A DNA stretch of 64,000 nt from Escherichia phage vB_EcoM_KAW3E185. The stretch lies in sequence record MK373782.1, one strand, 5' to 3'. The notes beneath the pieces were generated by a model that had not been told where the DNA came from, made no database searches, and saw only the letters and a list, made by a program, of their open reading frames with translations. Numbering within the stretch: position 1 is the stretch's first letter; every line of letters starts with the position of its first letter. Below, in pieces: positions 12,250 through 44,237 of this stretch. Made by a program: the position numbers and the translations under genes.

Positions 12250-12571
12250 AATCTTCTATGATATCAGAGTCATATCCTAATGAAATCAAGGACTTTTTAA
12301 ACTCTGCAATATTCTTTTGTTTCTTATCATTTAAAAATATGACAGGATAACGAATATTAAGTGAAGTGAATCCTGCACGTTTAGCAAGAGATACGATTAA
12401 AGGACGGTCATATTCAATCTTACCATTATTAGTGAGGACTTTATAAAATGTATAAGGAGCATTGAGCTCCTTTAAAAGTTTTGTAACAGTATAACATCCT
12501 GGACAACGTCCAACTTCTTCAGGGATGCCATAAATTTCAATCTTGTTCTTTAAGTTCGAGTTTTGTTCCAC
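12248..12571 (-). CDS. nrdH: glutaredoxin/NrdH-like redoxin (about 107 aa)
   Basis: CPGC active-site motif (IYGIPEEVGRCPGCY); probable GTG start at 12571 with AAGGAA upstream; no in-frame ATG. Confidence 0.5.
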   Translation of the reverse strand: MEQNSNLKNKIEIYGIPEEVGRCPGCYTVTKLLKELNAPYTFYKVLTNNGKIEYDRPLIVSLAKRAGFTSLNIRYPVIFLNDKKQKNIAEFKKSLISLGYDSDIIED

Positions 12572-12854
12572 GAGAAATAATTCCTTGGTAAGCCCAATAA
12601 GGAGGATTAACAGAATCCTCACCAGAGTTTTCTTCAGGAAAATAAACCTGGATAACGAAGCCGGATTCATCAAAGGTAAAATAAACCGTAGGCAATTCAC
12701 CTAACAATTCGGCACGAGCATTAATTTCTTCTAGATCTCGTTCACGTCCAGCCCAAAAACTAGGATTTAGATTACATTCGTAAAAATAATAGTCATTACC
12801 GAACATATCAAAACCCTTCCAACTCTCTACCACATACCGCTCAAAACTAATCAT
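12537..12854 (-). CDS. hypothetical protein (105 aa)
   Basis: ATG start. Confidence 0.45.
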   Translation of the reverse strand: MISFERYVVESWKGFDMFGNDYYFYECNLNPSFWAGRERDLEEINARAELLGELPTVYFTFDESGFVIQVYFPEENSGEDSVNPPYWAYQGIISRGTKLELKEQD

Positions 12855-30738: not shown

Positions 30739-30914
30739 ATTATTTCTCTTAAGGTTTGGGCCATTCCGTGGCACATGTTAGGTCCTTCGACTCGCTATGT
30801 AAACCCATTACCGCATTGCGCTCGACCTTATTACAGGTTGGAAAAGGTACATCACTCAGAGGACTCGACGTTCATAAGGAGAGGTTGCGTTTCCCTTTAT
30901 TAGACAGGAATTAT

Positions 30915-31175
30915 TTAAGCTTTACCACCAGAAACAATTCCAAAGTTATCAAAATCGTATTCAATATCATCAACATCCACTTTAGGTCCCGCTACGATGT
31001 ATGCGATTTCGCGGCGCTTTGCATAGGTATTGATTTCTTTACCGTCACCACCTAAGAAAGAATATCCATTACGTTTTAATGAGCCAAAGTCTTCAGCATC
31101 ACCTGCGAATGCTTTAACTTTAAATTTAGGGCCTTTAACGACTGCTTCTGTGATAAATTCTTGATACGTTTTCAT
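30915..31175 (-). CDS. internal-protein-like gene with capsid-targeting leader (about 86 aa)
   Basis: Starts MKTYQEFITEA, the T4 internal-protein targeting sequence with the LxE-type prohead-protease site. Confidence 0.6.
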   Translation of the reverse strand: MKTYQEFITEAVVKGPKFKVKAFAGDAEDFGSLKRNGYSFLGGDGKEINTYAKRREIAYIVAGPKVDVDDIEYDFDNFGIVSGGKA

Positions 31176-31190
31176 TTTTATGTCCATTAG

Positions 31191-31604
31191 TTAGTAAATT
31201 GATTTGCCATAATATTTGTACCAAGACGGCCGTTGAGCAATTTTTTCATCTAAGCGTGCTTGACTTATCGCAATGGACGCTTCGGACGGGTCATAATTAT
31301 TACGAAATTCGGCAGGGATGTCGGAAATATCCTGGACTGTCGTGTCCTTGATTTTGAAACCACGTTTCAAGCATTCAGCGATTAGCTCGATTTGACGTAA
31401 ACGTAAAAATTCGAGTTTGTCGTAAAAGAATGTTACGTGACCTGTGCCTAAGATAAATGTTGGAGAGATTTTAAAATCCTTTACACGTTTACCGTTTTGA
31501 ACATGTTTACGGACTGCACCAAATACGCGTGGTAATTCACGATACTCAGCCATAAGATGTTGGTCGGCCAGTTCAGAAACAAGTGTTAAATTGATACGAG
31601 TCAT
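31191..31604 (-). CDS. denV: endonuclease V, pyrimidine-dimer DNA glycosylase DenV (137 aa)
   Basis: ATG at 31604 gives [34 protein letters not shown]..., near-identical to recalled T4 endonuclease V. Confidence 0.9.
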
Positions 31605-31624
31605 AATTTCCTCCAAGTAGTTGA

Positions 31625-31661
31625 TGAATGTATAGTATCAAAGTCCTTGGAGGAAGTAAAC
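31625..31661 (-). promoter_or_regulatory. early promoter of denV, GTTTAC-18-TACTAT (minus strand)
   Basis: Spacer contains the recurring CCAAGGA core; followed by GGAGG and the denV ATG. Confidence 0.5.
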
Positions 31662-31662
31662 A

Positions 31663-31944
31663 CTATTTTTCTGAAGCGCCTGAAATATATTTTTCAAGAC
31701 GTTGTTTCATTAGCGAGCCGTTCTTAGCGATTTCTTCCGGTTTATCGCACATACGTAACAAGGCTTCAAGCTTAGCGATATCGCTGGTACGTTCAAATTT
31801 GCGAGTATCTATCTTACTAGCAAGTTCAGAAATACGTGCTAATAGACTTTCGGCTTCAACCAAAGCTGCACCTAGCTTAGTTGCAAATGTGTCAGTAGCT
31901 TCGTTAAGAATAGATTCTGATAAAAATTCACTATATGTTTTCAT
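31663..31944 (-). CDS. internal-protein-like gene with capsid-targeting leader (about 93 aa)
   Basis: ATG at 31944 overlaps the e stop (ATGA); starts [11 protein letters not shown]. Confidence 0.6.
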
Positions 31945-32429
31945 ATATACGCTTTCCAAGTTCCTGTTTTAAATGTTGAGATTACGCGTTTCGCGCGATT
32001 AGGTGTCTGACGATACCATTTAGATTGGGCTAGATTTACTGCCGCTTCATCCCAACGTTTCTGTTGAAGCATACGAAGAGAATTAGTAAAACCGGCGACG
32101 CCTGATATACCCATTTGGAAGACCATATTGACCAATGCACACCGACGAACCGCATCTAAAGAATCATATACCGGTTTAAGTTTAGCATTACCCAAGATTC
32201 CGCGAACGGCTTTATCAACGTCTTCATTAAATAGCTTTTCAGCCTCATCAAGAGTAATTGTACCGTTGCATTTACGTCCGATCATTCTGTCAAGTTCAGC
32301 TTTAGCTACGGCTAAAGACGGGTTCTTTGTTACTAAATGGCCTATGCCAATAGTCCAAAAGCCTTCGGTGTCTTTGTATAAAGTCAGTCTAAGACCTTCG
32401 TCATTACGAAGCATTTCAAATATATTCAT
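31941..32429 (-). CDS. e: lysozyme (endolysin) e (162 aa)
   Basis: ATG at 32429 preceded by GGAGGTAT gives [31 protein letters not shown]..., matching recalled T4 lysozyme with the catalytic Glu-8x-Asp-5x-Thr triad; ORF-track start at 32441 is GTG. Confidence 0.95.
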
Positions 32430-32463
32430 AATACCTCCCACGTTTATAGGAGGTATTTATTAC

Positions 32464-32919
32464 TTATAGGAGTGTAGTGAGCACCTTATATAATGATTTG
32501 CCCATTACATATTCCCATTGAGAAGGTTTAATTAAAGCGAATGCATCAAATTCAGGAATCTGTCGTCCGTCTGGGAATGTATGATAGGAATTACAAACAC
32601 TGTTTCTGAATTGCTCGTGCTCTACAGGGATGGTATATAGGAACAGATGAATATTCTTATTGTCTGAGTAATGATGTTCACCTAGGTCTTTCAGGAAGGC
32701 AGGGTCATATTGTGTAAACCCAGTTTCTTCTTCGCATTCACGAATAGCGGCTTCAATAGGAGATTCACCCGGCTCGACACGTCCTTTAGGAATATCCCAC
32801 CGATGAGCTAAAGAACCTTTAGGACGAGAACCAGTTACACGCCCCATGAATAATTCTTTATCTTCGGTAAGGAAAATAATACCGGCTGATAGTTCTTTCA
32901 CTTTATTTTTCTTACTCAT
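32464..32919 (-). CDS. nudE: Nudix hydrolase NudE (151 aa)
   Basis: Nudix box GRVEPGESPIEAAIRECEEETG; immediately upstream of e as T4 e.1/nudE. Confidence 0.85.
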   Translation of the reverse strand: MSKKNKVKELSAGIIFLTEDKELFMGRVTGSRPKGSLAHRWDIPKGRVEPGESPIEAAIRECEEETGFTQYDPAFLKDLGEHHYSDNKNIHLFLYTIPVEHEQFRNSVCNSYHTFPDGRQIPEFDAFALIKPSQWEYVMGKSLYKVLTTLL

Positions 32920-33148
32920 CATCTCGGTCCCATGATTTGGCCATTAATCCGGACATAAATTCTTCAATGCGCGTTTCTTTAGATGGACTTTCACTATTAG
33001 AGACCGCAAGTTTGTAATCTGCAATAGGACAGAACATATCAAGGTCCATATTAAGGTCGTCTTTGATTTTTTCTTCTGACACATCTTTATCGTATGTGTA
33101 CAGATAACTATCACATGATTCTGATTTAATGTAAATTGCTATACTCAT
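32912..33148 (-). CDS. hypothetical protein (about 78 aa)
   Basis: ATG at 33148 preceded by AGGAA inside the recurring junction cassette. Confidence 0.45.
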   Translation of the reverse strand: MSIAIYIKSESCDSYLYTYDKDVSEEKIKDDLNMDLDMFCPIADYKLAVSNSESPSKETRIEEFMSGLMAKSWDRDDE

Positions 33149-33624
33149 CTCAAATTCCTGCATTCGGTAATAAAACGTTCAACTTCATTATTCTTGGCTT
33201 TTATCTTGTCTTTATGTTCTTGTAAACTACTTTTAATAAGATTAATAATGATAGCGACAGTGCCGCCGCCAATGATGCCACCAATAATACTTACGATAGT
33301 AGATGCTAATAAGATAGCAATAATATCAACAAAACCGAAAGAACTCACCTTAGTACTAAAAAACCATACCGATGGTACAAATATAATCCATCCTGCTATC
33401 CATTGGCACTTATTGAAAAACTTTTCAAGATCAGCTTGAGTTGTTCGTATTACTTCATCGATAGGTTGATAACCGTTAATGTATCTGTTCACGATAATAC
33501 CTGCTGGCTGGTCGATTTTAAATTCTTGGCAAATACGTTTAACTAAGTAGGATGGACATCCTGTCCAATCTACTGAATAGTATGAAATACCTTTATTGCC
33601 GTCGTCTATATTATTGTTAATCAT
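33145..33624 (-). CDS. hypothetical membrane protein (159 aa)
   Basis: Two or three hydrophobic segments; C-terminus ERFITECRNLR. Confidence 0.5.
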   Translation of the reverse strand: MINNNIDDGNKGISYYSVDWTGCPSYLVKRICQEFKIDQPAGIIVNRYINGYQPIDEVIRTTQADLEKFFNKCQWIAGWIIFVPSVWFFSTKVSSFGFVDIIAILLASTIVSIIGGIIGGGTVAIIINLIKSSLQEHKDKIKAKNNEVERFITECRNLR

Positions 33625-34310
33625 TACCAGCCTTCCATAGGGAATTCCAGATAAACTTGAGCGTTGACACGAATTTCATTGGTAATCTTTTTAACTCGGT
33701 CTGTATTACGAGATACACGTCCGAACCAACGCCATCCATTACTAATTGCACGAGAACCAGTGTGCCATGTTTGCCAATCAAACTGAAGAAGAGTACGGTC
33801 TGGAGCTTCCCATTTCTCTAGTTCACCTTTTTCAATTTTTTCGAGGACTTCTTTGTGCCACTGGCGATAGATAAGTTCGCCATCAGGAATCTGACTGAAC
33901 TCTGCAGTTCCTGTTGCAAAATGAGTAGGACACACATCAGCGTTAACAAGACCAAGAATATGTTCAGAATGGTAACGAGGGTTGTCATAGTCAGGTTGTC
34001 CTGCAGTAATAAAGTGTTGACCAACTGGAATATCAGGGCGAGGAACATCGTCATGGTGGTATCCAGGGATAGCAGGATACCACCCAGGCATCAGCATATG
34101 AACCCGAGAATCAAATACAACATGTTGATTAGTCCAATCAATTGGGAGATTGGCAATAAAGCTACGAGTGATTGAGCCACCATTATCCCAAGCAAAACCC
34201 AAATCACAATTAAAGAACATTGGTTCATTTTTGATTCGGTCATTTTGTACGTTATGTGCAAAACTACCAACTGCACGAGCTTGACTATTAAAAGTTTTAG
34301 AACTATTCAT
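33624..34310 (-). CDS. hypothetical protein (228 aa)
   Basis: ATG start; His/Asp/Trp-rich. Confidence 0.5.
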   Translation of the reverse strand: MNSSKTFNSQARAVGSFAHNVQNDRIKNEPMFFNCDLGFAWDNGGSITRSFIANLPIDWTNQHVVFDSRVHMLMPGWYPAIPGYHHDDVPRPDIPVGQHFITAGQPDYDNPRYHSEHILGLVNADVCPTHFATGTAEFSQIPDGELIYRQWHKEVLEKIEKGELEKWEAPDRTLLQFDWQTWHTGSRAISNGWRWFGRVSRNTDRVKKITNEIRVNAQVYLEFPMEGW

Positions 34311-34311
34311 A

Positions 34312-34617
34312 TTATTTTCCTCGACATTCTTTAATGAAATTTTCTAGATTGGTAGATTCAATAGCTTTTTTACGAGCTTCTGCGTGTTCTTCTTCAGACA
34401 ATTTACATTTATAATTGACCCAGACGTTATGGTCGAAACTAGTCGTGGCATATAATAACAATGCTCCAACGAATAGCAAAAACGGCGATAAGAATACAAA
34501 ACCAGGAACACCATCCATACTGTAAGCCTTTTGTAATACTGCAACAGAAAGAGCTGCGTAAAAAAGTGATACAAATATTGTTAAAAGACCAATTCGGTTG
34601 GTTTCGCCTAATTTCAT
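34312..34617 (-). CDS. hypothetical membrane protein (101 aa)
   Basis: Hydrophobic N-terminal half; C-terminus NLENFIKECRGK. Confidence 0.5.
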   Translation of the reverse strand: MKLGETNRIGLLTIFVSLFYAALSVAVLQKAYSMDGVPGFVFLSPFLLFVGALLLYATTSFDHNVWVNYKCKLSEEEHAEARKKAIESTNLENFIKECRGK

Positions 34618-34636
34618 AATATTCTCCTCATGTTTT

Positions 34637-34676
34637 AATAGGACTACTATAACATAGTCCTATCAGTTTGTACACT
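34637..34676 (-). promoter_or_regulatory. early promoter with inverted repeat TAGGACTA/TAGTCCTA around the -10 (minus strand)
   Basis: TGTACA-spacer-TATAGT, then AAAAC, GAGGAGAA and ATG. Confidence 0.5.
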
Positions 34677-34876
34677 TATTTTGACATTTCTTCGATGTCA
34701 CGACGATACCCATCACGAACTTCACGAAGAGCTTCAAGGCCACACATAGGCTCGATACCAGTAATGTGAACTTGATTAATCTGATACTCTACATCTTCTA
34801 ACTGAGCGAAAACATAACGACGTTCTGCTGCACAACCAGGTTTAGCTTTACCGAAACGTTTATTCAAAGTAGTCAT
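34676..34876 (-). CDS. hypothetical protein (about 66 aa)
   Basis: ORF-track start is GTG; ATG at 34876 preceded by GGAG. Confidence 0.45.
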   Translation of the reverse strand: MTTLNKRFGKAKPGCAAERRYVFAQLEDVEYQINQVHITGIEPMCGLEALREVRDGYRRDIEEMSK

Positions 34877-34904
34877 TTTTATATCTCCATTCACTCATTT
34901 GTTT

Positions 34905-34944
34905 TGATAGGTCTATAGTATCAACAACTACAGACCTTGTAAAC
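34905..34944 (-). promoter_or_regulatory. early promoter cassette with inverted repeat AGGTCT/AGACCT (minus strand)
   Basis: GTTTAC at 34944..34939 with TATAGA/TATAGT-like -10 inside the repeat. Confidence 0.45.
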
Positions 34945-34956
34945 TGTTTTGTGAAA

Positions 34957-35913
34957 TTATTTGAAAGGTTTTACCATATGAAAGTTTTGTTTGAAACGCT
35001 TGACGTAATCGTCGTGTCCTAAGCTTTGGTACATACTTACTACTTTGCTATAATTTTCCCAAGCGAACTCACGGAACCATCCTGATGTGATTGATGTACA
35101 GACCTTTTCAAGGGCCATCATAAAACTATCACGTGGATGGATTTCAAAGTTATTAGGAATCTGAGAACGTTCTAACGCTAGTACACATGATTCTTCGTAT
35201 ACGCCGGCCAATTTGACCATTTCTGGTAATGATTCGAACTTCTCGCGTGAGGTCATGACTTCAGAACCATCTTTCATATAAAATGTATACGCTGGACGGT
35301 CTGTTAGTGCAATGGCTTCGTGAATAGTATCATGATCGTATGTGTAGATGTCATCTTTAAAGAATGCGCTTTTAGAAGTGTCAAGAACCGGGTGAGCATA
35401 ATTCAAAGTTTCTTTCTGGCGTTTCAGCATAATTTCAGTAAGTTCATCGTTCAGTGTAACACCTTTACCACGAAGATACTGAATATGGTTCATAGTCTTT
35501 AAAAAGAATGGATTATTTTTCTTGAAACGATGAGACATCTTAATTGCAAGACATATCTCAGGAGTTGCCCAGTAAAACCCGTTCAAACGGTCTTTAGTCA
35601 AATTTTTCTTGGCGTATTTTAAAAGGTCATAAGAAGACGTGAAATCTTCAGGAGTGAGTTCACCGACTAATTCACGGACATTAGTGATTGCCGGAACAAT
35701 ATATGCTTCAAAATGAGTTTCGCGTCCATTATGGAAGCATTTGAAAACTTGGACATCAGGGTTATCTTGGTGAACATATACACCCATCATTTGATTTTTG
35801 AATGCATTCCAAGAACCTTGGTCCGCAATAAAGTCCCAATCACTATTTTTAATAGCGCTAGAATCAATAAGACCGTGATAGTGAAGTGCACGAGAACCAA
35901 TAACTAACATCAT
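34957..35913 (-). CDS. hypothetical protein (318 aa)
   Basis: ATG start; N-terminal IGSRALHYHG...SDWDF loosely resembles a GS...DxD nucleotidyltransferase motif (weak). Confidence 0.55.
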   Translation of the reverse strand: MMLVIGSRALHYHGLIDSSAIKNSDWDFIADQGSWNAFKNQMMGVYVHQDNPDVQVFKCFHNGRETHFEAYIVPAITNVRELVGELTPEDFTSSYDLLKYAKKNLTKDRLNGFYWATPEICLAIKMSHRFKKNNPFFLKTMNHIQYLRGKGVTLNDELTEIMLKRQKETLNYAHPVLDTSKSAFFKDDIYTYDHDTIHEAIALTDRPAYTFYMKDGSEVMTSREKFESLPEMVKLAGVYEESCVLALERSQIPNNFEIHPRDSFMMALEKVCTSITSGWFREFAWENYSKVVSMYQSLGHDDYVKRFKQNFHMVKPFK

Positions 35914-35941
35914 AATATTTTCCTCGGATTAATTCATTAAC

Positions 35942-36193
35942 TTAAATTTCACGACATGCGATATTATATTCATCCCAGAGGTCATCATGTGAAGCCTCTA
36001 CCAATGGAACGATTGTACCGTTTATGTCTTCATTATAAGGGCAAATTGTACAGTGCGCATCTTCGAATCGGATGCCTTTGTGTTCAGATTTTTTATAACG
36101 CATATCGAATATCTTTGCAAACTTTTCACGAGTAATGGTTTTAGCAACCACTTTAGTTCCGATACTTTCGTAATAAATCATTGTGGACTCCAT
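35942..36193 (-). CDS. hypothetical protein (83 aa)
   Basis: ATG start. Confidence 0.5.
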   Translation of the reverse strand: MESTMIYYESIGTKVVAKTITREKFAKIFDMRYKKSEHKGIRFEDAHCTICPYNEDINGTIVPLVEASHDDLWDEYNIACREI

Positions 36194-36200
36194 TTGTTTT

Positions 36201-36239
36201 GATAGGACTACTATAACATAGCCCTATCTTGTTGTAAAC
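36201..36239 (-). promoter_or_regulatory. early promoter with inverted repeat GATAGGACTA/TAGCCCTATC (minus strand)
   Basis: GTTTAC-spacer-TATAGT cassette of the same family as at 24685 and 43145. Confidence 0.5.
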
Positions 36240-36243
36240 TGTT

Positions 36244-36441
36244 TTAGCAAGAATAACTAGATGATACCCAGCCTTGAACAGTGATACTATTGTGGGATAA
36301 TGAGATCGCGTCCTGGAGATTCAGACCTGCGTTATCTTCAATCCATAATGTAACTTCTTCGCGTTCTTCTGTTGCAATTTGGAACAGGTTTTCCAGAGCA
36401 GCTACTGCCGTACGTACAGCACAATCTAATTCACGAGACAT
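36244..36441 (-). CDS. hypothetical protein with conserved C-terminal tail (65 aa)
   Basis: Ends ...ITVQGWVSSSYSC; one of three tandem genes sharing the tail. Confidence 0.5.
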   Translation of the reverse strand: MSRELDCAVRTAVAALENLFQIATEEREEVTLWIEDNAGLNLQDAISLSHNSITVQGWVSSSYSC

Positions 36442-36450
36442 ATTGTTTCC

Positions 36451-36723
36451 TTAGCAAGTGTGAGAAGATGCGACCCAACCACCGGTTTCGAGGCTCAGGT
36501 TGTAGTCGTATTGGTAAACGTCAGCCCATTCAGCATAGCCGTTTTTTGCACAACGTTCAAGATCGGCTTTAAGATGTCCGGGTGAATGATAGGTTCCACC
36601 CATACCATAAGCTGGGTACAAGTTGAATGTTGTGTTTTGTTTATCAGCAATTTCTTTGGCAGCCTCAATAGCTGCATAGATTTTTGCTACAGCTTCAGCC
36701 AGTTCGGTTTGTTCTTTAGACAT
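36451..36723 (-). CDS. hypothetical protein with conserved C-terminal tail (90 aa)
   Basis: Ends ...LETGGWVASSHTC. Confidence 0.5.
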   Translation of the reverse strand: MSKEQTELAEAVAKIYAAIEAAKEIADKQNTTFNLYPAYGMGGTYHSPGHLKADLERCAKNGYAEWADVYQYDYNLSLETGGWVASSHTC

Positions 36724-36732
36724 AATGATTCC

Positions 36733-37038
36733 TTAGCACAACGCAGAAGACGAAACCCAAGCACCTTCAGTAATAACGTATCCATTACCTTCACGCTTAA
36801 CATCGCCGCCATTATTTTCAATTTCATCTTTCATCCACTGGGATACGATTTCACCCTTAGGATAATAAGTACGACCGCTACCATAATCACCTACAGAAAA
36901 TGATACGGCATATTGGTCTGCGATCTTTGTTGCTTCTTCTTCGATACGTTCAGCTTGATTCAGAAGTTTATAAATTGCATCTGAAGCGGATTTGGCATCA
37001 TTAAACTCTGGTACTTTAATTTCAATAATCTTACTCAT
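36733..37038 (-). CDS. hypothetical protein with conserved C-terminal tail (101 aa)
   Basis: Ends ...ITEGAWVSSSALC. Confidence 0.5.
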   Translation of the reverse strand: MSKIIEIKVPEFNDAKSASDAIYKLLNQAERIEEEATKIADQYAVSFSVGDYGSGRTYYPKGEIVSQWMKDEIENNGGDVKREGNGYVITEGAWVSSSALC

Positions 37039-37394
37039 TTTCTACATTCCTTAATAAAGTTTTCGATTGTTTCATTTTCACGTTTAGCTAGAAGTTCATT
37101 ATAACTAATCATTTGAGAAGCGTAAATCTTTTTATTTTTCTTGTTATGGTTTATAAAATCGTAGTAAAAATAGACTACAGTACAAAATGATGCGATGGAT
37201 GCAAAGGCTTGGGTATACCGTAAGTCCTGCCATTGGTCTGTGAATCCACCAGTGTTCCCTATAAATCCTAACACAACGCCGTCAATAAGAAATCCAACTA
37301 ATCCAAAGGCAAATCCCATGCCAATACTCATAATAAAAATTAGAATGTTCTCACCAAGAGAAGGCCATACGGTTAAGAGTTGAGGCTTTTGCAT
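37035..37394 (-). CDS. hypothetical membrane protein (119 aa)
   Basis: Glycine-rich hydrophobic N-terminal half; C-terminus IENFIKECRK. Confidence 0.5.
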   Translation of the reverse strand: MQKPQLLTVWPSLGENILIFIMSIGMGFAFGLVGFLIDGVVLGFIGNTGGFTDQWQDLRYTQAFASIASFCTVVYFYYDFINHNKKNKKIYASQMISYNELLAKRENETIENFIKECRK

Positions 37395-37768
37395 CTTATT
37401 TCCTTAACGAATTCCATAGCTTCTTCATATTCATACTTTTTAACAGCCTCGTCATATTGGGCTCTTGCTTTTGCACATTGAATTTTCCATTCACGTACTC
37501 GAGCTCTATAATGACGTCCTTGGTACCAATATCCCACCCAATTAATAGGCATTAATAAAAATGGCACAATAAACGACCCGGCTATAATAAGTAAAAACAC
37601 TGCATCAGACGATATAACTTCACTAGAATCTAAAACAGCTCCTATAATCATAAAGATTAAAAATGCTAAAGCTAAAATAGGGCCAAATAGTACTTCATTT
37701 GGGATTAATTTACGCTTGTATTCATACGCCCAGGGCTTACTTGGTATGTATAGGGTTGGCTTTGACAT
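37373..37768 (-). CDS. hypothetical membrane protein (about 131 aa)
   Basis: ATG at 37768 within the junction cassette; two hydrophobic segments. Confidence 0.5.
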   Translation of the reverse strand: MSKPTLYIPSKPWAYEYKRKLIPNEVLFGPILALAFLIFMIIGAVLDSSEVISSDAVFLLIIAGSFIVPFLLMPINWVGYWYQGRHYRARVREWKIQCAKARAQYDEAVKKYEYEEAMEFVKEIRCKSLNS

Positions 37769-38339
37769 ATTCTCTACATTCCATAATAAATTGCTCAAGG
37801 ATTAAATTGTTAGTGAAATTAGGACTAACAACCATGGTTTCATAAAGCGCATCAATAGCACTTAAAGCATCAACTCTTTTAAGCAAAGGCTTGCCTTCAT
37901 ACATAGTTTCAGAATCGACGATTAACGTAAAGTAATATTTTTTATTATCGACTAGAACTTCTGTATCGATATAAAACATATTAGACCTCAGAAGCTTATC
38001 TCTAAAACCATAATAATCTTCTGAACGTTCACTGATATATTCCCATTCAGTGTTTAAACAACAAACAGACCATGTAGGAGCAACGAAATCAGTGAATCTA
38101 ATATCATGGTCTGCAACTAGTTTAGCAATAGCTCCGATATCATGAATCATAATACCTGGGGCTAATAAAGATTTTCTGCTATGGCTAGCCGTTTTCTCAG
38201 TAGTCTCATAAGAAGACGACCAGTACCATTTACGTCCGGTTGCAACATATCGTAATGAATCAACTAAAGACGTAGGTGGATTTACCTTATCTCGGAACTC
38301 TTCGAACATTGAGTCAATATCATTATTTTGGTTTCGCAT
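37737..38339 (-). CDS. hypothetical protein (about 200 aa)
   Basis: ORF-track start is TTG; ATG at 38339 preceded by GGAG. Confidence 0.5.
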   Translation of the reverse strand: MRNQNNDIDSMFEEFRDKVNPPTSLVDSLRYVATGRKWYWSSSYETTEKTASHSRKSLLAPGIMIHDIGAIAKLVADHDIRFTDFVAPTWSVCCLNTEWEYISERSEDYYGFRDKLLRSNMFYIDTEVLVDNKKYYFTLIVDSETMYEGKPLLKRVDALSAIDALYETMVVSPNFTNNLILEQFIMECREYVKANPIHTK

Positions 38340-38356
38340 GTTAACTCCTTTATTAT

Positions 38357-38380
38357 CCAAAAGGAGGACCGGAGTCCTCC
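38357..38380 (-). terminator. rho-independent terminator (minus strand)
   Basis: GGAGGAC...GTCCTCC hairpin followed by UUUUGG on the minus-strand RNA. Confidence 0.45.
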
Positions 38381-38388
38381 GTATTATT

Positions 38389-38982
38389 TTATTTCAAAGA
38401 GTTAATATATTCTTGTACATCAGCAGAAGTGGTTTCGACACCGGCTGGAGTGCCATTGAACGTTTCAACACGAGTCAGAGTGTCTTCGATATCAACCTTA
38501 GTCAGTGCAGCGATTTCAATTACATCATCAGCCGTAGAGATACCAAGGGCATTGGCTGCTCGAGTTTCACGAATGTATTCGAGTTTGATTGCCAGGTTCT
38601 GACGAGCATCGTCAAGTTCAACCACCTTACGAGCAATTTCAATTCGCATAGCGGCATACCCGTCAGCTTTTGTATTAAGTTGTTCGGCAGTTCGACGATA
38701 CAGAAGACCAAGCTTAGCATGCATGGTAACATCTTGTCCTTCGGCCAAGAGCTTACGAATTTCACGTTCCTTAGAAGCGGCTTGCTTATTCTTTTCAATA
38801 ACAAGTTCGCGAATACGTTTTTCTTCATTAATAGATTTAACAGAAGCCGTTTTTAGTTCTTTGATTTGGGTAATCAACTTATCTGCAGCTGCGTTATACT
38901 GTTCTTCGACAGTCAGATTTTTAGCCATAGCAGTACCCAGTTTAGTGCGGATGAATTCAACAAGTTTCTTCAGTGTGTTCAT
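38389..38982 (-). CDS. coiled-coil protein, PspA/IM30-like (about 197 aa)
   Basis: ATG at 38982; long amphipathic coiled-coil sequence throughout; family assignment from pattern only. Confidence 0.45.
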
Positions 38983-39017
38983 ATTATTACCTTTCAATTG
39001 GTGGTCTATTATCCAAT

Positions 39018-39052
39018 GAGAGCATTATACTCTGCTCTCAAGAGTTTGTAAA
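39018..39052 (-). promoter_or_regulatory. early promoter TTTACA-17-TATAAT (minus strand)
   Basis: Core TATACTCTGCTCTCAAGAGTTTGTA is identical to the copy at 10676..10711. Confidence 0.5.
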
Positions 39053-39280
39053 TTATTTTTTAATCAAATTGACATAAAACTCGGCGTCTTCTGGGTGCAT
39101 GCCTTCACAGTATTCTTCAACCATGAACTTCTTAACAGCTTCATAAGGACCACTCAGATTAAGCTCAGTTGTCCAGAACTTGGAATCTTGGACCGAATCG
39201 ATACGAACGTCAGGGTGACGGTTGCGAATAACTTCTTCAGTATATTCATAATCAACGACATCAATACTAACTTTAGCCAT
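39053..39280 (-). CDS. hypothetical acidic protein (75 aa)
   Basis: ATG start. Confidence 0.5.
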   Translation of the reverse strand: MAKVSIDVVDYEYTEEVIRNRHPDVRIDSVQDSKFWTTELNLSGPYEAVKKFMVEEYCEGMHPEDAEFYVNLIKK

Positions 39281-39308
39281 TTTGTTTTCCTCTTGATTTG
39301 ATGTGATT

Positions 39309-39338
39309 ACTATAACATAAACTTACTTAGATGTAAAT
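39309..39338 (-). promoter_or_regulatory. early-promoter-like sequence TTTACA-17-TATAGT (minus strand)
   Basis: Sequence pattern only. Confidence 0.35.
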
Positions 39339-39490
39339 TATTTCAACGTCACCTTTAGCGGCTTTATAACCTTCAGCCCAAGATACAACAGAGTTTTTAT
39401 CTGAGGATTCAAATTCAGGCATTGGACTTTCACCAATATTCACACAGTATGTTTCTTCATTTTCATCGAACCAAATAATTAAAGTAGTCA
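39326..39490 (-). CDS. hypothetical small protein (54 aa)
   Basis: ATG at 39490 preceded by GAGGAG; below the ORF-track threshold. Confidence 0.3.
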
Positions 39491-39510
39491 TTTTGTTTAC
39501 TCCTCTGTAG

Positions 39511-39550
39511 TTGATAAGTCTATAGTATCACCATCCTTGGTGCTTGTACA
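39511..39550 (-). promoter_or_regulatory. early promoter cassette with spacer hairpin CACCAaggaTGGTG (minus strand)
   Basis: TGTACA at the -35 position; same CCAAGGATGG core as the 20881 cassette. Confidence 0.45.
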
Positions 39551-39559
39551 TCATTATTT

Positions 39560-39865
39560 TTAATTTTTCCAACTTAACAACTTGTAGTGGCCTTCATTCA
39601 TACGTGGTTTATCCCAAGAAATACTAATATATGATTCACTGTCAATAGAAGTCGCCGGGTTTTTCTCTACCGTAAGACCTTCACTTTCCAGCCATTCAAT
39701 AGTATTTGCACATAAATCAGAAGAACACCTAATCGGAAACCGGCAAGATTTTTCACCTTTAGCTGCAGCGTTATACATCTTTTCTAAAATACGCTTTTGC
39801 ACGTTTTTAAAAATAGTTTCAGCAGATTCTTCGGATTTTTTATTCAGTTCAGTATAAAGACTCAT
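39560..39865 (-). CDS. hypothetical protein (101 aa)
   Basis: ATG start. Confidence 0.5.
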   Translation of the reverse strand: MSLYTELNKKSEESAETIFKNVQKRILEKMYNAAAKGEKSCRFPIRCSSDLCANTIEWLESEGLTVEKNPATSIDSESYISISWDKPRMNEGHYKLLSWKN

Positions 39866-39884
39866 AACATTTTCCTCTGCGGTT

Positions 39885-39922
39885 GATAAGTCTATAGTAT
39901 CATGTCCTTAGAAGAAGTAAAC
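39885..39922 (-). promoter_or_regulatory. early promoter GTTTAC-17-TACTAT (minus strand)
   Basis: Followed by GAGGAAAA and ATG. Confidence 0.5.
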
Positions 39923-39954
39923 ATCTTTATGAAATATTTTTATGCCCTAGATAC

Positions 39955-39982
39955 CAAAAAGCCCCAACCGTAAGGAAGGGGC
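39955..39982 (-). terminator. rho-independent terminator (minus strand)
   Basis: GCCCCttccttacggttGGGGC hairpin followed by UUUUU; near-identical to the copy at 40498. Confidence 0.55.
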
Positions 39983-39988
39983 ATTCTA

Positions 39989-40453
39989 TTATTTAATTTG
40001 TTTAGCAGACCAGATACGGTCTTTAATAAGTTTTTGGATATCTTCAACATACTCAAGGCTATGAGCGTGAGGATTATCTTTGAAACTACGTGCTCGTGCC
40101 AGTTTCTGGCCTTCTGTTTTGATTACTAAAAGCTCTTTAAGAATTGCTTCATACTTAGAAATAATTCCTTTAACGATATTTTTTTCTTGAGCTGTTTTAG
40201 GGTCAGTTTTTGGCGCAGGTGCTTTACCTGTAGCTTTCTGGAACAATTCACCTGATGCAGCTAGGCTTTTAAAAACTCGGCTAACAGTATTAGCATTAGT
40301 AAAACCTTCGGCTTTAAAATCTCTAATAAAACGGAAACGTTCTTCATCGGAGGCGTCTTTGTAAGAATATTTACCTGCTTGAATTGCTGCAATCGCAGCG
40401 GCTTTTACATCTGAACTAGATTGTTCAGTCAAAAATTCAGCGTATGATTTCAT
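39989..40453 (-). CDS. internal-protein-like gene with capsid-targeting-like leader (154 aa)
   Basis: Starts MKSYAEFLTEQ (variant of MKTYQEFI...E); Ala/Lys-rich. Confidence 0.5.
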   Translation of the reverse strand: MKSYAEFLTEQSSSDVKAAAIAAIQAGKYSYKDASDEERFRFIRDFKAEGFTNANTVSRVFKSLAASGELFQKATGKAPAPKTDPKTAQEKNIVKGIISKYEAILKELLVIKTEGQKLARARSFKDNPHAHSLEYVEDIQKLIKDRIWSAKQIK

Positions 40454-40497
40454 GTTGCTTTTCCTAAGTTAATTAACTTATCTATTTATTATTATGC

Positions 40498-40526
40498 CAA
40501 AAAGCCCCAACCGTAAGGAAGGGGCT
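40498..40526 (-). terminator. rho-independent terminator (minus strand)
   Basis: Same hairpin module followed by UUUUU; lies just downstream of the tRNA-like RNA. Confidence 0.55.
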
Positions 40527-40565
40527 AAGCCTTGCGGCAACCTTGTCGGGGTTCCACCTGCTAAG

Positions 40566-40722
40566 GCAAGTGTTTGTACGAAACGCCGGGATTCGAACCC
40601 GGTTATTAAGCAGTTGACGCTACTCAATATTTTTAAAAGGCCATATCTCGACCATATCCGAACGTTCCGTCAAAAACGCTACTCGGCTTACGGCAAAGAT
40701 ATTTCCTCGAATCGATAATTCG
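40566..40722 (-). ncRNA. tRNA-like structured RNA (about 155 nt; possibly a species-1/2-type stable RNA)
   Basis: Minus-strand RNA has 5' GAAACGGCG pairing with 3' CGGCGUUUCG (one mismatch) and a canonical T-arm CCGGGUUCGAAUCCCGG; boundaries approximate. Confidence 0.4.
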
Positions 40723-40832
40723 GTGCGCCGTTTCTGTTGTGATAGTAAAGAATCAGAACACAGTAAAACTGTGGGAGAAACTATACTCCAGGGAACATCA
40801 GTCCGACGACTTACCGGTAGCGACCCGGTTTC

Positions 40833-41177
40833 TCATTTTGGCATATCATCAATTTGCTCTCGACGCCGACGCCATAGATTAATCGCTTCATTAACACATT
40901 CGGCGTTTGGTATATGACGGCAATAATATAATGATTCGCGTTTCTGGAACCGATGTTGCAACGGGATTTCGTTTAAAAGATCTTTACGATCAAAGTATTC
41001 AAAACTAGTTAACCCTGAACGGTTTTTAATGAACTTCCAATGGCCGAATTCATTTTGAACATAGATGTAATCGGCATGCTGATAAAGTGAATTAATCAAT
41101 CGATGAGAAATAACTGTATCATATTCATTAAAATAAAACGTTAAATCATGAACTACCAAATAAATATTGCCTTTCAT
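40833..41177 (-). CDS. hypothetical protein (about 114 aa)
   Basis: ATG at 41177 preceded by GAGGA, just downstream of tRNA-Arg; the ORF track extends into the tRNA. Confidence 0.45.
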   Translation of the reverse strand: MKGNIYLVVHDLTFYFNEYDTVISHRLINSLYQHADYIYVQNEFGHWKFIKNRSGLTSFEYFDRKDLLNEIPLQHRFQKRESLYYCRHIPNAECVNEAINLWRRRREQIDDMPK

Positions 41178-41195
41178 ATTTTCCTCACTTATAAT

Positions 41196-41272
<77 letters not shown>

Positions 41273-41275
41273 GAT

Positions 41276-41352
41276 TGGTGACCCAGACCAGATTCGAACT
41301 GGTAACCTTTCCCTTATGAGGGGACTGCTGCTAACCGTTGAGCTACAGGGCC
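41276..41352 (-). tRNA. tRNA-Ile (anticodon CAU, Ile2-type)
   Basis: Minus-strand GGCCCTGTAGCTCAACGGTTAGCAGCAGTCCCCTCATAAGGG...TTCGAATC...CACCA; anticodon loop CUCAUAA; called Ile rather than Met from the T4 tRNA set. Confidence 0.75.
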
Positions 41353-41431
41353 TAAATAACTTTCTATTATGAAAGGCACTTTAGAGCACCTTTGGTAATA
41401 GAGGGTATGAATTAATAATAACACATAATTC

Positions 41432-41947
41432 TTAAAGCAAATCAATCATTTTAACAGTTGGCAAAACGATTTCTTCTTCAATATAAGCAAATTCAACACA
41501 TTCAACTACACACAAGAAATCATAATCATAATATTCAGAAGCATGTCCAAGAATACCAACGAGACCTTCTGATACTAAATATCCATTCTCACAGAACAGG
41601 TCGAATACACGCGATTCGTCTTCTTCAGATTTATTACCAAGGTCGACTTCAATATCAAAGACCTTTTTAATGAATTCTGGATAAAGATGGTCTGAGAACA
41701 GTCCTTCAACCAGATATTCGTAGATAATAAGCGAGCAATCACTGAATGGTGTATTACCACAGTAACGTTCAGCTTTAGTGCTAGAATGACGACTCTTAAA
41801 TTTCTTCAAGAGATATTTAAACTGTTGGAGCTCATGCTCTTCTACACCAAATAATGTTTTGGTTTTATAGTTGTCGCCGTCATTTTCCGAAGTAGTGACA
41901 TCAATTACGTAACCTTTAGGGATTGTACTGCCTAAACAAATATTCAT
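41432..41947 (-). CDS. hypothetical acidic protein (171 aa)
   Basis: ATG start. Confidence 0.5.
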   Translation of the reverse strand: MNICLGSTIPKGYVIDVTTSENDGDNYKTKTLFGVEEHELQQFKYLLKKFKSRHSSTKAERYCGNTPFSDCSLIIYEYLVEGLFSDHLYPEFIKKVFDIEVDLGNKSEEDESRVFDLFCENGYLVSEGLVGILGHASEYYDYDFLCVVECVEFAYIEEEIVLPTVKMIDLL

Positions 41948-41951
41948 TTAC

Positions 41952-42242
41952 TCACCGTACCATATTAATGTAATTATATTCAATGCAACGTAATTTCAAA
42001 GTGTTCTTGAAAATATCGTATTCAAGAGGGCCTGATTCAGTTTCAATAAAGAAATCAAAATTAACTGTGTTAAATTTATTGTCTTCACAGAGTAATTTAA
42101 CCTGTGAAGATGAACGGTCGATATAAACCTTTTCAACCTCAAAGTTAGTCAGAATACCGTAGTCATCGACTAGTGCTTTAGCTGCACGTTGGTCGCTTTC
42201 ATATCCATTCTCAACGGATTTTACCTTAGCATAAAGAATCAT
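41952..42242 (-). CDS. hypothetical protein (96 aa)
   Basis: ATG start. Confidence 0.5.
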   Translation of the reverse strand: MILYAKVKSVENGYESDQRAAKALVDDYGILTNFEVEKVYIDRSSSQVKLLCEDNKFNTVNFDFFIETESGPLEYDIFKNTLKLRCIEYNYINMVR

Positions 42243-42601
42243 GAATGTTCCACCACTTCAAAGGTATGAGCATCAACAATATGATACCAGTCAAAATTTT
42301 CTTCTGAGTTTTTATAAATTTCGCGAAGAGCTTCAACAGTTTTTCCTGTAGCAACAAGATCATCAATACCACCAAGAGGATAACAGTCATAACCAGCAAA
42401 CAGAAGGAAATTAATAGTTTCTGTAGGTTCTGGATGCAGAACACCGTTATCGTCTACCACTTCAAAGAAAGTGTAAGAAGGAGTACAAGTTTTAATCCAA
42501 GCCCAGGCTTGAGCTGCTGAATCAAATGGTCCGCGTATCAAACGACAATCAGGGTCTTTAGAAGGATTTGCTTCAAAATCTGCATATACATGATATTTCA
42601 T
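42239..42601 (-). CDS. hypothetical protein (about 120 aa)
   Basis: ORF-track start is TTG; ATG at 42601 preceded by AAAGGTGA. Confidence 0.5.
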   Translation of the reverse strand: MKYHVYADFEANPSKDPDCRLIRGPFDSAAQAWAWIKTCTPSYTFFEVVDDNGVLHPEPTETINFLLFAGYDCYPLGGIDDLVATGKTVEALREIYKNSEENFDWYHIVDAHTFEVVEHS

Positions 42602-42602
42602 T

Positions 42603-42788
42603 TTACTCACCTTTTGCAATTTTATCCATAACGATAGCGATTAAGCCGATTAGAAATGCTACTACCAATGAGATAGAATTTTCTGTTGTTGTCAGTAGTC
42701 CACAAATGAATCCTACAAACATCGAAAAACTAAAAGCCATTGAAGCAATTACTACAGCAACATTACGAATCAGTTCAGCGCGTTTCAT
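42603..42788 (-). CDS. hypothetical small membrane protein (about 61 aa)
   Basis: ATG at 42788 preceded by GGAG; single hydrophobic helix. Confidence 0.45.
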   Translation of the reverse strand: MKRAELIRNVAVVIASMAFSFSMFVGFICGLLTTTENSISLVVAFLIGLIAIVMDKIAKGE

Positions 42789-42814
42789 TTTATTTCTCCA
42801 TTTACTCATTTGTT

Positions 42815-42855
42815 TTGATAGGACTACTATATCATATCCCTATAGGCTTGTATAC
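42815..42855 (-). promoter_or_regulatory. early promoter cassette, GATAGGACTA family (minus strand)
   Basis: GTATAC-spacer-TATAG with TAGGACTA... repeat, then AAAAC. Confidence 0.45.
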
Positions 42856-42857
42856 CT

Positions 42858-43121
42858 TTATTTCAAATATATTGCGTATTTTTTATAGCCACCAGGCTCG
42901 TGTCGAAGACCTTTATCATTTGCAAAACGTTGAATGTTATTGAACTGATTTTCATCAAGTTCAGACGTGTCAAATATGAAAAAGTTTCGTTTGTTACCAA
43001 GCGTGATATGCGGAGTTAAGTCAATGTTATACAAATTAAGAATATCAACAATAACCTGATTGACCGCTTTGTTAATTTTCACACCAGACGATTCTGAGAT
43101 GAATTCGTTGAAAGTTTTCAT
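42858..43121 (-). CDS. internal-protein-like gene with capsid-targeting leader (about 87 aa)
   Basis: Starts MKTFNEFISES. Confidence 0.55.
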   Translation of the reverse strand: MKTFNEFISESSGVKINKAVNQVIVDILNLYNIDLTPHITLGNKRNFFIFDTSELDENQFNNIQRFANDKGLRHEPGGYKKYAIYLK

Positions 43122-43144
43122 TTTAGGTTCCATTTGGTTGTTTT

Positions 43145-43183
43145 GATAGGACTACTATAACATAGTCCTATCAGCATGTAAAC
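43145..43183 (-). promoter_or_regulatory. early promoter with inverted repeat GATAGGACTA/TAGTCCTATC around the -10 (minus strand)
   Basis: GTTTAC-18nt-TATAGT, then AAAAC. Confidence 0.5.
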
Positions 43184-43186
43184 TAC

Positions 43187-43474
43187 TTACAGAAGAGTTT
43201 TTGCAATAATTTTAAGCTGAGCTACAGAAATATGCTTAGCTTTAAACAGTGCAGTCTCTTCAGCCGGAGAGATAACAATAGTAGCGCCATCTTTCTTAGC
43301 AGACCATCCATCCCCTAAGTAAACAGTACCTTTTACTTCTTCACCATCAACCAGACTAATCATTGGTTTACCCTCACGTCCTTTATTTGTTTTAATAACT
43401 TCAGAAGTAAGGGATGCTTCGGTCAGAGTAGAAACGTTAGCAACAGGTGATATAAATTCTTTATAGGTTTTCAT
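43187..43474 (-). CDS. internal-protein-like gene with capsid-targeting leader (95 aa)
   Basis: Starts MKTYKEFIS...TE; ATG start; own promoter upstream. Confidence 0.55.
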   Translation of the reverse strand: MKTYKEFISPVANVSTLTEASLTSEVIKTNKGREGKPMISLVDGEEVKGTVYLGDGWSAKKDGATIVISPAEETALFKAKHISVAQLKIIAKTLL

Positions 43475-43501
43475 TTTATTTCCTTGAGGTTGTTTATTTG
43501 A

Positions 43502-43538
43502 TAGGATGATAGTAACACACCATCATCCTTATGTAAAC
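43502..43538 (-). promoter_or_regulatory. early promoter with 9-bp inverted repeat AGGATGATG/CATCATCCT around the -10 (minus strand)
   Basis: GTTTAC-18nt-TACTAT. Confidence 0.5.
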
Positions 43539-43551
43539 TGTTTTGTGAAAA

Positions 43552-44237
<686 letters not shown>

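Follow-up and report, generated by a model that had tools for sequence, protein, structure and literature searches.

The DNA analyzed here is a 64,000-nucleotide (nt) stretch of Escherichia phage vB_EcoM_KAW3E185 (MK373782.1), referred to below as the window. Between positions 30,915 and 43,474 it carries five small genes, designated IP_A to IP_E, whose products begin with the leader of the internal proteins (IPs) of phage T4. This 12.6-kb region is 95 to 97% identical to the complete Mosigvirus (RB69-like T-even) genomes mobillu, APCEc01, Shf125875, and SHSML-52-1, and by these alignments we assign the window to a Mosigvirus genome (RB69-like, Tevenvirinae). The five genes are listed below; the lengths and isoelectric points (pI) of the mature products are predictions.

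30915-31175, minus strand: IP_A, 86 amino acids (aa), leader MKTYQEFITE followed by A, mature part of 76 residues, pI 6.5; equivalent to RB69 ORF125c.
31663-31944, minus strand: IP_B, 93 aa, 10-residue leader followed by S, mature part of 83 residues, pI 6.3; equivalent to RB69 ORF127c.
39989-40453, minus strand: IP_C, 154 aa, leader MKSYAEFLTE followed by Q, mature part of 144 residues, pI 9.7.
42858-43121, minus strand: IP_D, 87 aa, leader MKTFNEFISE followed by S, mature part of 77 residues, pI 9.0; Ip9 family.
43187-43474, minus strand: IP_E, 95 aa, leader beginning MKTYKEFISPV, mature part of 76 residues, pI 9.0; orthologue of T4 internal protein I.

In a six-frame scan of the window, the leader pattern MK[TS][YF].[ED]F[ILVM] was matched exactly five times, always on the minus strand and at the start of an open reading frame (ORF) of 86 to 154 codons. 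The pattern was found in none of 200 first-order Markov resamples, and its analytic expectation is 0.0018. Looser leader patterns applied over the 64 kb yielded no further MK-initiated ORF of at least 40 aa. An earlier inspection of this DNA from its letters alone (the sequence-only reading) had named five leader-bearing genes, and the scan recovered these five and no other. Since the leader occurs five times against about 0.002 expected, each time heading an ORF in the coding orientation, we regard the five genes as members of the IP class. Behind their leaders the proteins are unrelated to one another, as had also been stated: in pairwise BLASTP of the leaderless bodies (14-sequence database), no pair of the five scored better than an E value of about 0.05, and the proteins were assigned to five different PHROG families. 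The leader-coding DNA is 64 to 72% identical among four of the five genes (repeat family D2).

The residues retained in the leaders are those that matter in the capsid targeting sequence (CTS) of T4. In the CTS of T4 IPIII, residues 4 and 7 chiefly govern targeting, while residues 8 and 10 govern processing by gp21 (Mullaney and Black 1996, summarized in PMC9026906); in terms of MKTYQEFIAE, targeting depends on position 4 being aromatic and position 7 being Phe, and gp21 on [L/I] at position 8 and Glu at position 10 (PMC9026906). Position 4 is Y, Y, Y, F, and Y in IP_A to IP_E, respectively, and every leader has F at position 7. A gp21-type site, [L/I]-x-E, occupies positions 8 to 10 in IP_A (ITE), IP_B (LSE), IP_C (LTE), and IP_D (ISE); IP_E has Pro at position 10 and LTE at positions 17 to 19, where T4 IPI has ITE. 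One further N terminus with a weak likeness to the CTS, MISFERYVVES, was considered at the start of a 105-aa ORF (12537-12854, minus strand); its position 4 is aromatic, and Tyr, Val, and Glu occupy positions 7, 8, and 10, respectively. It was set aside as probably a chance match, since it lacks the MK start, lies outside the IP loci, and is a single hit of a very loose pattern.

The protein encoded by IP_E matched the Pfam family PF11634 (IPI_T4) over profile positions 1 to 76 of 76, with an E value of 2.6e-49 and a score of 165.5 bits (cutoff, 25), and PDB entry 2JUB with an E value of 7.4e-41. Its identity to T4 IPI is 86% overall and 92% in the mature part. The predicted propeptide comprises 19 residues, MKTYKEFISPVANVSTLTE followed by A, and its removal would leave a mature IPI* of 76 aa. 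By this similarity, IP_E is identified as IPI itself. It shares with T4 IPI, the injected inhibitor of the Type IV enzyme GmrSD of strain CT596, the length of 95 aa, a 19-residue propeptide ending in (I/L)-T-E before A, and the position beside gene 57B. What sets it apart from T4 IPI* are 6 substitutions among the 76 mature residues and its residence in an RB69-like phage.

Pfam and PDB sequence searches returned no match for IP_A to IP_D, and the assignment of these proteins relies on PHROG profiles and on named relatives. IP_D matched phrog_7673 over residues 1 to 87 (E value, 2.6e-48) and is about 70% identical to RB15 Ip9 (Q38376) at 100% coverage. Its AlphaFold model, with a mean predicted local distance difference test (pLDDT) score of 82 and a predicted template modeling (pTM) score of 0.70, shows residues 1 to 12 as disordered, followed by what is predicted to be a small alpha/beta fold of the order alpha-beta-beta-alpha-beta-beta. 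A Foldseek search of this model against the PDB gave nothing below an E value of 0.02, with all TM scores under 0.5, and a search against viral models (BFVD) gave uncharacterized proteins only. IP_B matched phrog_3499 (E value, 2.1e-46) and is 47.6% identical over residues 1 to 84 to Ip5 of T2 and RB32, on which we assign it to the Ip5 family. The start codon of IP_B and the stop codon of the lysozyme gene e share bases (ATGA), and because of this overlap IP_B is probably translationally coupled to e. IP_A matched phrog_2667, annotated as an internal head protein, with E values of 9e-22 for the whole protein and 6.3e-13 without the leader, and it is 84% identical to the RB69 product that RefSeq names internal head protein. 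The Ip7 protein of Shf125875 matched the same profile (E value, 4e-42), and on profile evidence the IP_A body is a member of the Ip7 family; the kinship is remote, because pairwise BLASTP of the two bodies was not significant (31% identity over 48 aa; E value, 0.1). The gene lies directly against the denV stop codon and lacks a separate promoter.

The profile searches placed IP_A, IP_B, and IP_D in internal-head PHROG families and identified IP_E as IPI. Four of the five thus belong to families already annotated as internal head or virion proteins, which supports the earlier view of these genes as candidate injected antidefense proteins.

IP_C is the only one of the five that has no internal-protein label in the public records examined. 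It matched phrog_2280, of "unknown function" (E value, 8.5e-53), and its sequence is that of protein QBQ78696.1 of vB_EcoM_KAW3E185. Homologues occur in 511 phage records, in which every match listed is labeled hypothetical, and every named member listed of three IP_C protein clusters (299 sequences) is "hypothetical" or "uncharacterized." Searched against 1.84 billion representative proteins, the profile of the family gave only 11 matches, none annotated; both contigs read among them are T4-like. The gene lies outside the two variable IP loci (denV-e and trna.4-57B), which house the other four. It follows directly after the orthologues of the T4 stable RNAs rnaD and rnaC, before the e.8-side genes, and its surroundings include the following elements.

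40494-40525, minus strand: upstream copy of a 32-nt terminator hairpin, which ends the tRNA/rnaD/rnaC unit (repeat family D7).
40483-40490, minus strand: late-promoter-like box AATAAATA, a 7/8 match to the T4 late promoter TATAAATA; it ends 30 nt before the IP_C start codon.
39951-39982, minus strand: downstream copy of the 32-nt terminator hairpin, just past the IP_C stop codon.

The two terminator copies, one on either side of IP_C, are 97% identical. T4 has a single copy of the hairpin after rnaC, followed by the sequence that is found here beyond the distal copy, and no IP_C gene. In this comparison T4 represents the empty site of the IP_C cassette, and the duplicated hairpin looks like the trace of gain or loss of a gene cassette between terminator repeats. 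The rnaD and rnaC orthologues themselves (40578-40836, minus strand) lie between a 130-aa ORF (40833-41225) and IP_C and can be aligned with T4 at nearly every base in the portions that were compared; neither is covered by an Rfam family, and the Rfam search of this stretch reported only two tRNAs, at 41196-41352.

The box AATAAATA is flanked by the proximal hairpin on one side and by the ribosome-binding site of IP_C on the other. The canonical late promoter TATAAATA was absent from the 160 nt upstream of each of the five genes, and a 7/8 match was found for IP_C only. In AR1 (Tequatrovirus) and KpV477 (Jiaodavirus), the IP_C homologues have a perfect TATAAATA at the same place, and the corresponding sequence is CATAAATA in the metagenomic T4-like contig L008 and GATAAATA in L010, so that an xATAAATA box upstream of IP_C is conserved in five lineages. 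Full-length homologues of 48, 36, and 33% identity begin with MLKFNEFLAE, MLEYSEFLKE, and MISFNEFVDGNLITE, respectively; while their bodies have diverged, the leaders keep the aromatic residue at position 4, Phe at position 7, and a nearby [LIV]-x-E. Because the leader is retained in diverged homologues and the late-promoter-like box is conserved, there is good comparative evidence, if not proof, for a functional IP_C leader and for late expression of the gene, as would suit a head-packaged protein. In its AlphaFold model (pLDDT, 71), IP_C is helical throughout, a Pro/Lys linker joining two predicted domains, and a Foldseek search against the PDB gave nothing below an E value of 2.7. Structure prediction, which had been recommended together with the original observation, thus found no significant PDB relative for either IP_C or IP_D.

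With something short of even confidence, we tentatively propose that IP_C marks an unrecognized third internal-protein locus, namely, a late-expressed, CTS-tagged two-domain family present in more than 500 T-even-like phages, carried as a cassette between duplicated terminators after the tRNA/rnaC-rnaD unit and injected against a defense distinct from the GmrSD subtypes blocked by Ip1 to Ip3. The family may already be among the more than 30 IP variants counted by Comeau et al. 2007.

The genes at the ipI locus are accompanied by repeated elements of another kind.

43490-43554, minus strand: early-promoter/stem-loop cassette upstream of IP_E, GTTTACAT ... TACTAT, with the -10 box inside the hairpin (repeat family D1).
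43135-43199, minus strand: early-promoter/stem-loop cassette upstream of IP_D, GTTTACAT ... TATAGT, the latter inside a 9-bp stem.
42807-42871, minus strand: third copy, downstream of IP_D and upstream of trna.4, marking where the swappable IP_D body ends on its 3' side.

Before IP_D and IP_E the cassette follows the consensus GTTTACAT-N-TA(T/C)(A/T)(G/A)T, with the -10 box in the hairpin, and the same architecture is found upstream of T4 ipI, ipII, and ipIII. The sequence-only reading had stated that each of these two adjacent genes has its own promoter cassette, which the elements of about 65 nt at these places bear out. The same element was found at 34627-34691, 34896-34960, 36191-36255, and 39290-39354 as well, that is, in seven copies that are 62 to 100% identical to the reference copy and that each stand before a small ORF of the variable region. 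Three of the seven are at the ipI locus. Only two of the seven precede IP genes and four precede non-IP ORFs, and we rejected the idea that the cassette is specific to IP genes. The cassette is the published early-promoter/stem-loop (PeSL)-like element, present in seven copies within 14.5 kb. Like the PeSL cassettes of T4-type phages (Arbiol et al. 2010; Comeau et al. 2014), the seven elements of about 65 nt bound small variable ORFs, here between 30 and 44.5 kb. PeSL-like elements are known to be associated with the two IP loci, although the IP-associated elements of T-even phages are analogues, not homologues, of the PeSLs of RB49 and phi1; they are built on T4 early promoters, and their stems are weaker and AT-rich (PMC2839356).

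Comparison with Shf125875 indicated where the IP genes have been exchanged. When the window was aligned with this genome for collinearity, two breaks were found. At one of them, 135 nt of the window (30778-30912) stand in place of a 439-nt Shf125875 segment (1060-1498 of the compared stretch) carrying ipII, which lies there between vs.8 and ORF125c and whose product is 93% identical to T4 IPII. At the other, the IP_D body (window 42800-43084) stands in place of the Shf125875 Ip7 body: homology breaks off at 42799 and returns at 43085, at about codon 13 of IP_D, from where it runs through the leader and the promoter cassette. Because homology to Shf125875 resumes there and the leader DNA is conserved at the level given above, the leader and the promoter cassette are the shared flanks for cargo swapping, in agreement with the published model. 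It was also observed that the IP repertoire differs between genomes, the window and Shf125875, that are about 95% identical.

Relatives of the Ip9 body were found without the leader. Kagunavirus JSSK01 encodes a 72-aa protein that is 58% identical to the IP_D body and begins at IP_D residue 16; its gene (2507-2725 of the compared stretch) is the first in a rightward run of small genes and has in-frame stop codons upstream. About 10 siphophage records are similar to this leaderless gene. Seuratvirus KS_A3 encodes a leaderless Ip9-type protein of 74 aa (1483-1707 of the compared stretch), and in Ackermannviridae YX22 (1-1734 of the compared stretch) the Ip9-type body is the C-terminal domain of a protein of about 970 aa and unknown function (phrog_3867). 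The leaderless genes of the siphophages sit among small unannotated genes, outside annotated head-gene context. On the strength of these leaderless stand-alone homologues in siphophages, we consider the Ip9 cargo an autonomous module to which T-even phages would have added a delivery tag. The presence of the leaderless module in Kagunavirus and Seuratvirus further suggests that the target of Ip9 is not specific to sugar-modified hydroxymethylcytosine (hmC) DNA; phages of these two genera are not known to have glucosyl- or arabinosyl-hmC DNA. Such free-standing cargo also makes the function of Ip9 easier to test.

Diverse IPs that have only the CTS in common are described as injected antirestriction proteins (PMC3012670, citing Repoila 1994), more than 30 IP variants have been counted (Comeau et al. 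2007, as cited), and two variable IP loci have been defined (PMC2839356). Ip1, Ip2, and Ip3 of T4 each inhibit a different GmrSD subtype (PMC12373910). The statement of the earlier reading that IPI* of T4 inhibits a modification-dependent restriction system is confirmed by the literature, in which IPI* blocks GmrSD (PMC3012670). The IPI of RB69 likewise protects its phage against GmrSD, and RB69 DNA contains arabinosyl-hmC and not glucosyl-hmC (PMC6024577); IPIII is required on ECOR17 and works without its CTS when expressed in trans in the host cytoplasm (PMC9391042). The antidefense reading of T-even IPs is therefore already published consensus and not a new hypothesis.

IP_A, IP_B, and IP_D resemble the polymorphic Ip4 to Ip13 (Repoila et al. 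1994) in joining a conserved CTS to unrelated bodies, in lying at the two classical loci flanked by early-promoter/stem-loop cassettes, and in having bodies that vary between close relatives. They differ in being diverged alleles, at 70% identity to RB15 Ip9, 48% to T2 Ip5, and profile level to Ip7, and in that the Ip5- and Ip7-like genes flank denV in the lineage of the window instead of occupying the ipI locus. With T4 IPII and IPIII, which inhibit GmrSD-ECOR21/BrxU and GmrSD-ECOR17, respectively (Silas et al. 2025), the genes described here share the leader, the denV-e locus, and the presumed delivery route; none of the five resembles them in the body, and the window lacks both ipII and ipIII.

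The sequence features, family memberships, and cassette boundaries described above are directly established. From them we conclude with considerable confidence that the five genes are the IP genes of a Mosigvirus phage, whose products are CTS-tagged, packaged, cleaved, and injected and act against host defense; for IP_A to IP_D, the steps from packaging to activity are inferred. According to this model, the N-terminal CTS (10 residues; 19 in IPI) would bind the scaffolding core of the assembling prohead, and the prohead protease gp21 would cut after the Glu of [L/I]-x-E. The mature proteins of 8 to 16 kDa would remain in the head with the DNA, to be ejected into the next host before phage gene expression and to neutralize first-line defenses there. 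By analogy with T4, IP_E would inhibit CT596-type GmrSD, a Type IV enzyme that cuts sugar-modified hmC DNA. IP_A to IP_D would represent diverged cargo (Ip7-like, Ip5, phrog_2280, and Ip9, respectively) that most likely inhibits other fast-acting, strain-specific nucleases. Cargo bodies would recombine between phages via the leader-coding DNA and the early-promoter/stem-loop cassettes and, in the case of IP_C, the duplicated terminators. The gp21 prohead protease and gp22 scaffolding core genes presumably lie outside the 64-kb window, going by T4 gene order.

Several points weigh against this interpretation. The near-neutral pI of IP_A and IP_B (6.3 to 6.5) contrasts with the basic character of the T4 IPs. 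In IP_A and IP_D, a further in-frame ATG stands four codons 5' of the MKT start (MDIK-MKTY... and MEPK-MKTF..., respectively), and the leader would be internal if it were used; public records annotate either start. Neither fold nor sequence searches gave a clue to the function of IP_C or IP_D, the literature searched for virion proteomics of this phage or RB69-like relatives yielded nothing relevant, and eight active GmrSD systems were not reproducibly inhibited by ip4 to ip10 of T4-like phages (PMC12373910). As to the additional ATGs (31176-31187 and 43122-43133), we observed that ATGGA(C/A) may instead be a weak ribosome-binding site for the MKT start.

We considered whether the IPs are packaged but serve a structural or physical role, such as DNA charge neutralization, condensation, or help in ejection, their diversity then reflecting weak constraint and not an arms race. 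The basic character of IP_C, IP_D, and IP_E (pI 9.0 to 9.7), like that of T4 IPI to IPIII, would fit this explanation, as would the approximately 1,000 IP molecules embedded in the DNA of the T4 head (PMC3012670) and the lack of anti-GmrSD activity of ip4 to ip10. We nevertheless judge it decidedly improbable: all three T4 IPs have specific antirestriction targets, IPIII without its CTS is still active from the host cytoplasm, IP_A and IP_B are not basic, and the Ip9 body is found free-standing and leaderless in siphophages, outside annotated head-gene context. Also unlikely is that some of the five proteins, above all IP_C or IP_A, are not packaged, the leader being a vestige acquired by recombination and the proteins acting after expression in the infected cell. 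It is true that IP_C lies beyond the two classical IP loci and has no IP label in the listed records, that IP_A is promoterless and directly follows denV, that IP_D and IP_E are driven by early-type promoters, and that the leaderless Ip9 module evidently functions in other phages. Yet retention of residues 4, 7, 8, and 10 of the IP_C leader while the bodies fall to 33 to 48% identity is unexpected for a vestige, the late-promoter-like box upstream of IP_C in five lineages fits expression during head assembly, and T4 ipI to ipIII carry the same early-promoter cassettes and are packaged all the same.

The remaining alternative concerns the target. Proteins other than IPI may be injected antidefense factors directed against something other than GmrSD, including other nucleases, BREX-associated factors, and abortive-infection sensors. 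The leaderless Ip9 genes of Kagunavirus and Seuratvirus, phages that are not known to have the sugar-modified hmC named above, would agree with such targets, and so would the position of the ipI locus next to the anti-CBASS gene acb1, by which the neighborhood is not limited to antirestriction. The negative results for ip4 to ip10 on the GmrSD variants tested point the same way; therefore, the GmrSD-only model is unproven for IPs beyond T4 Ip1 to Ip3. On the other side, all three characterized IPs hit GmrSD enzymes, and from this very diverse family no more than 8 active systems have been tried. We regard this alternative as rather doubtful, although a real prospect.

Since injected proteins precede phage gene expression, they contribute to the range of wild strains open to infection by a therapeutic T-even phage. 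The general principle and three IP targets were already established, and the window adds little to them. What it adds is a catalogue of five IPs from one Mosigvirus, evidence for counting the widespread "hypothetical" family of IP_C (phrog_2280) among the IPs, with a third locus, and Ip9 genes that lack the leader. The result is a useful annotation improvement, not a new kind of system.

The genes surrounding the two classical loci were identified as follows.

31191-31616: denV (Pfam Pyr_excise).
31941-32441: lysozyme gene e (Pfam).
43552-44007, minus strand: 57B, that is, Acb1, an anti-CBASS (cyclic oligonucleotide-based antiphage signaling system) phosphodiesterase (Pfam PF23474 Acb1; E value, 1.6e-58).
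44007-44237: 57A (Pfam).

By the Shf125875 annotation, the order of corresponding genes is vs.8, ORF125c, denV, ORF127c, e, nudE ... tRNAs, trna.2-4, an IP gene, Ip1, 57B, 57A, and gene 1. The two adjacent genes IP_D and IP_E (42858..43474) had been placed beside 57B, which agrees with the position of 57B found here, and the IPI/Ip9 pair hence adjoins a second known antidefense gene, acb1. Around denV, the order is IP / denV / IP / e, compared with denV / ipII / ipIII / e in T4. The departure from T4 noted at the outset is therefore genuine, yet it is the usual order of RB69 and Mosigvirus phages. Elsewhere in the window, tandem ORFs of 65, 90, and 101 aa (36244-37038, minus strand) encode the similar C-terminal motifs GWVSSSYSC, GGWVASSHTC, and GAWVSSSALC and have a repeated junction sequence in common (family D5), so that they resemble a family of tandem paralogues.

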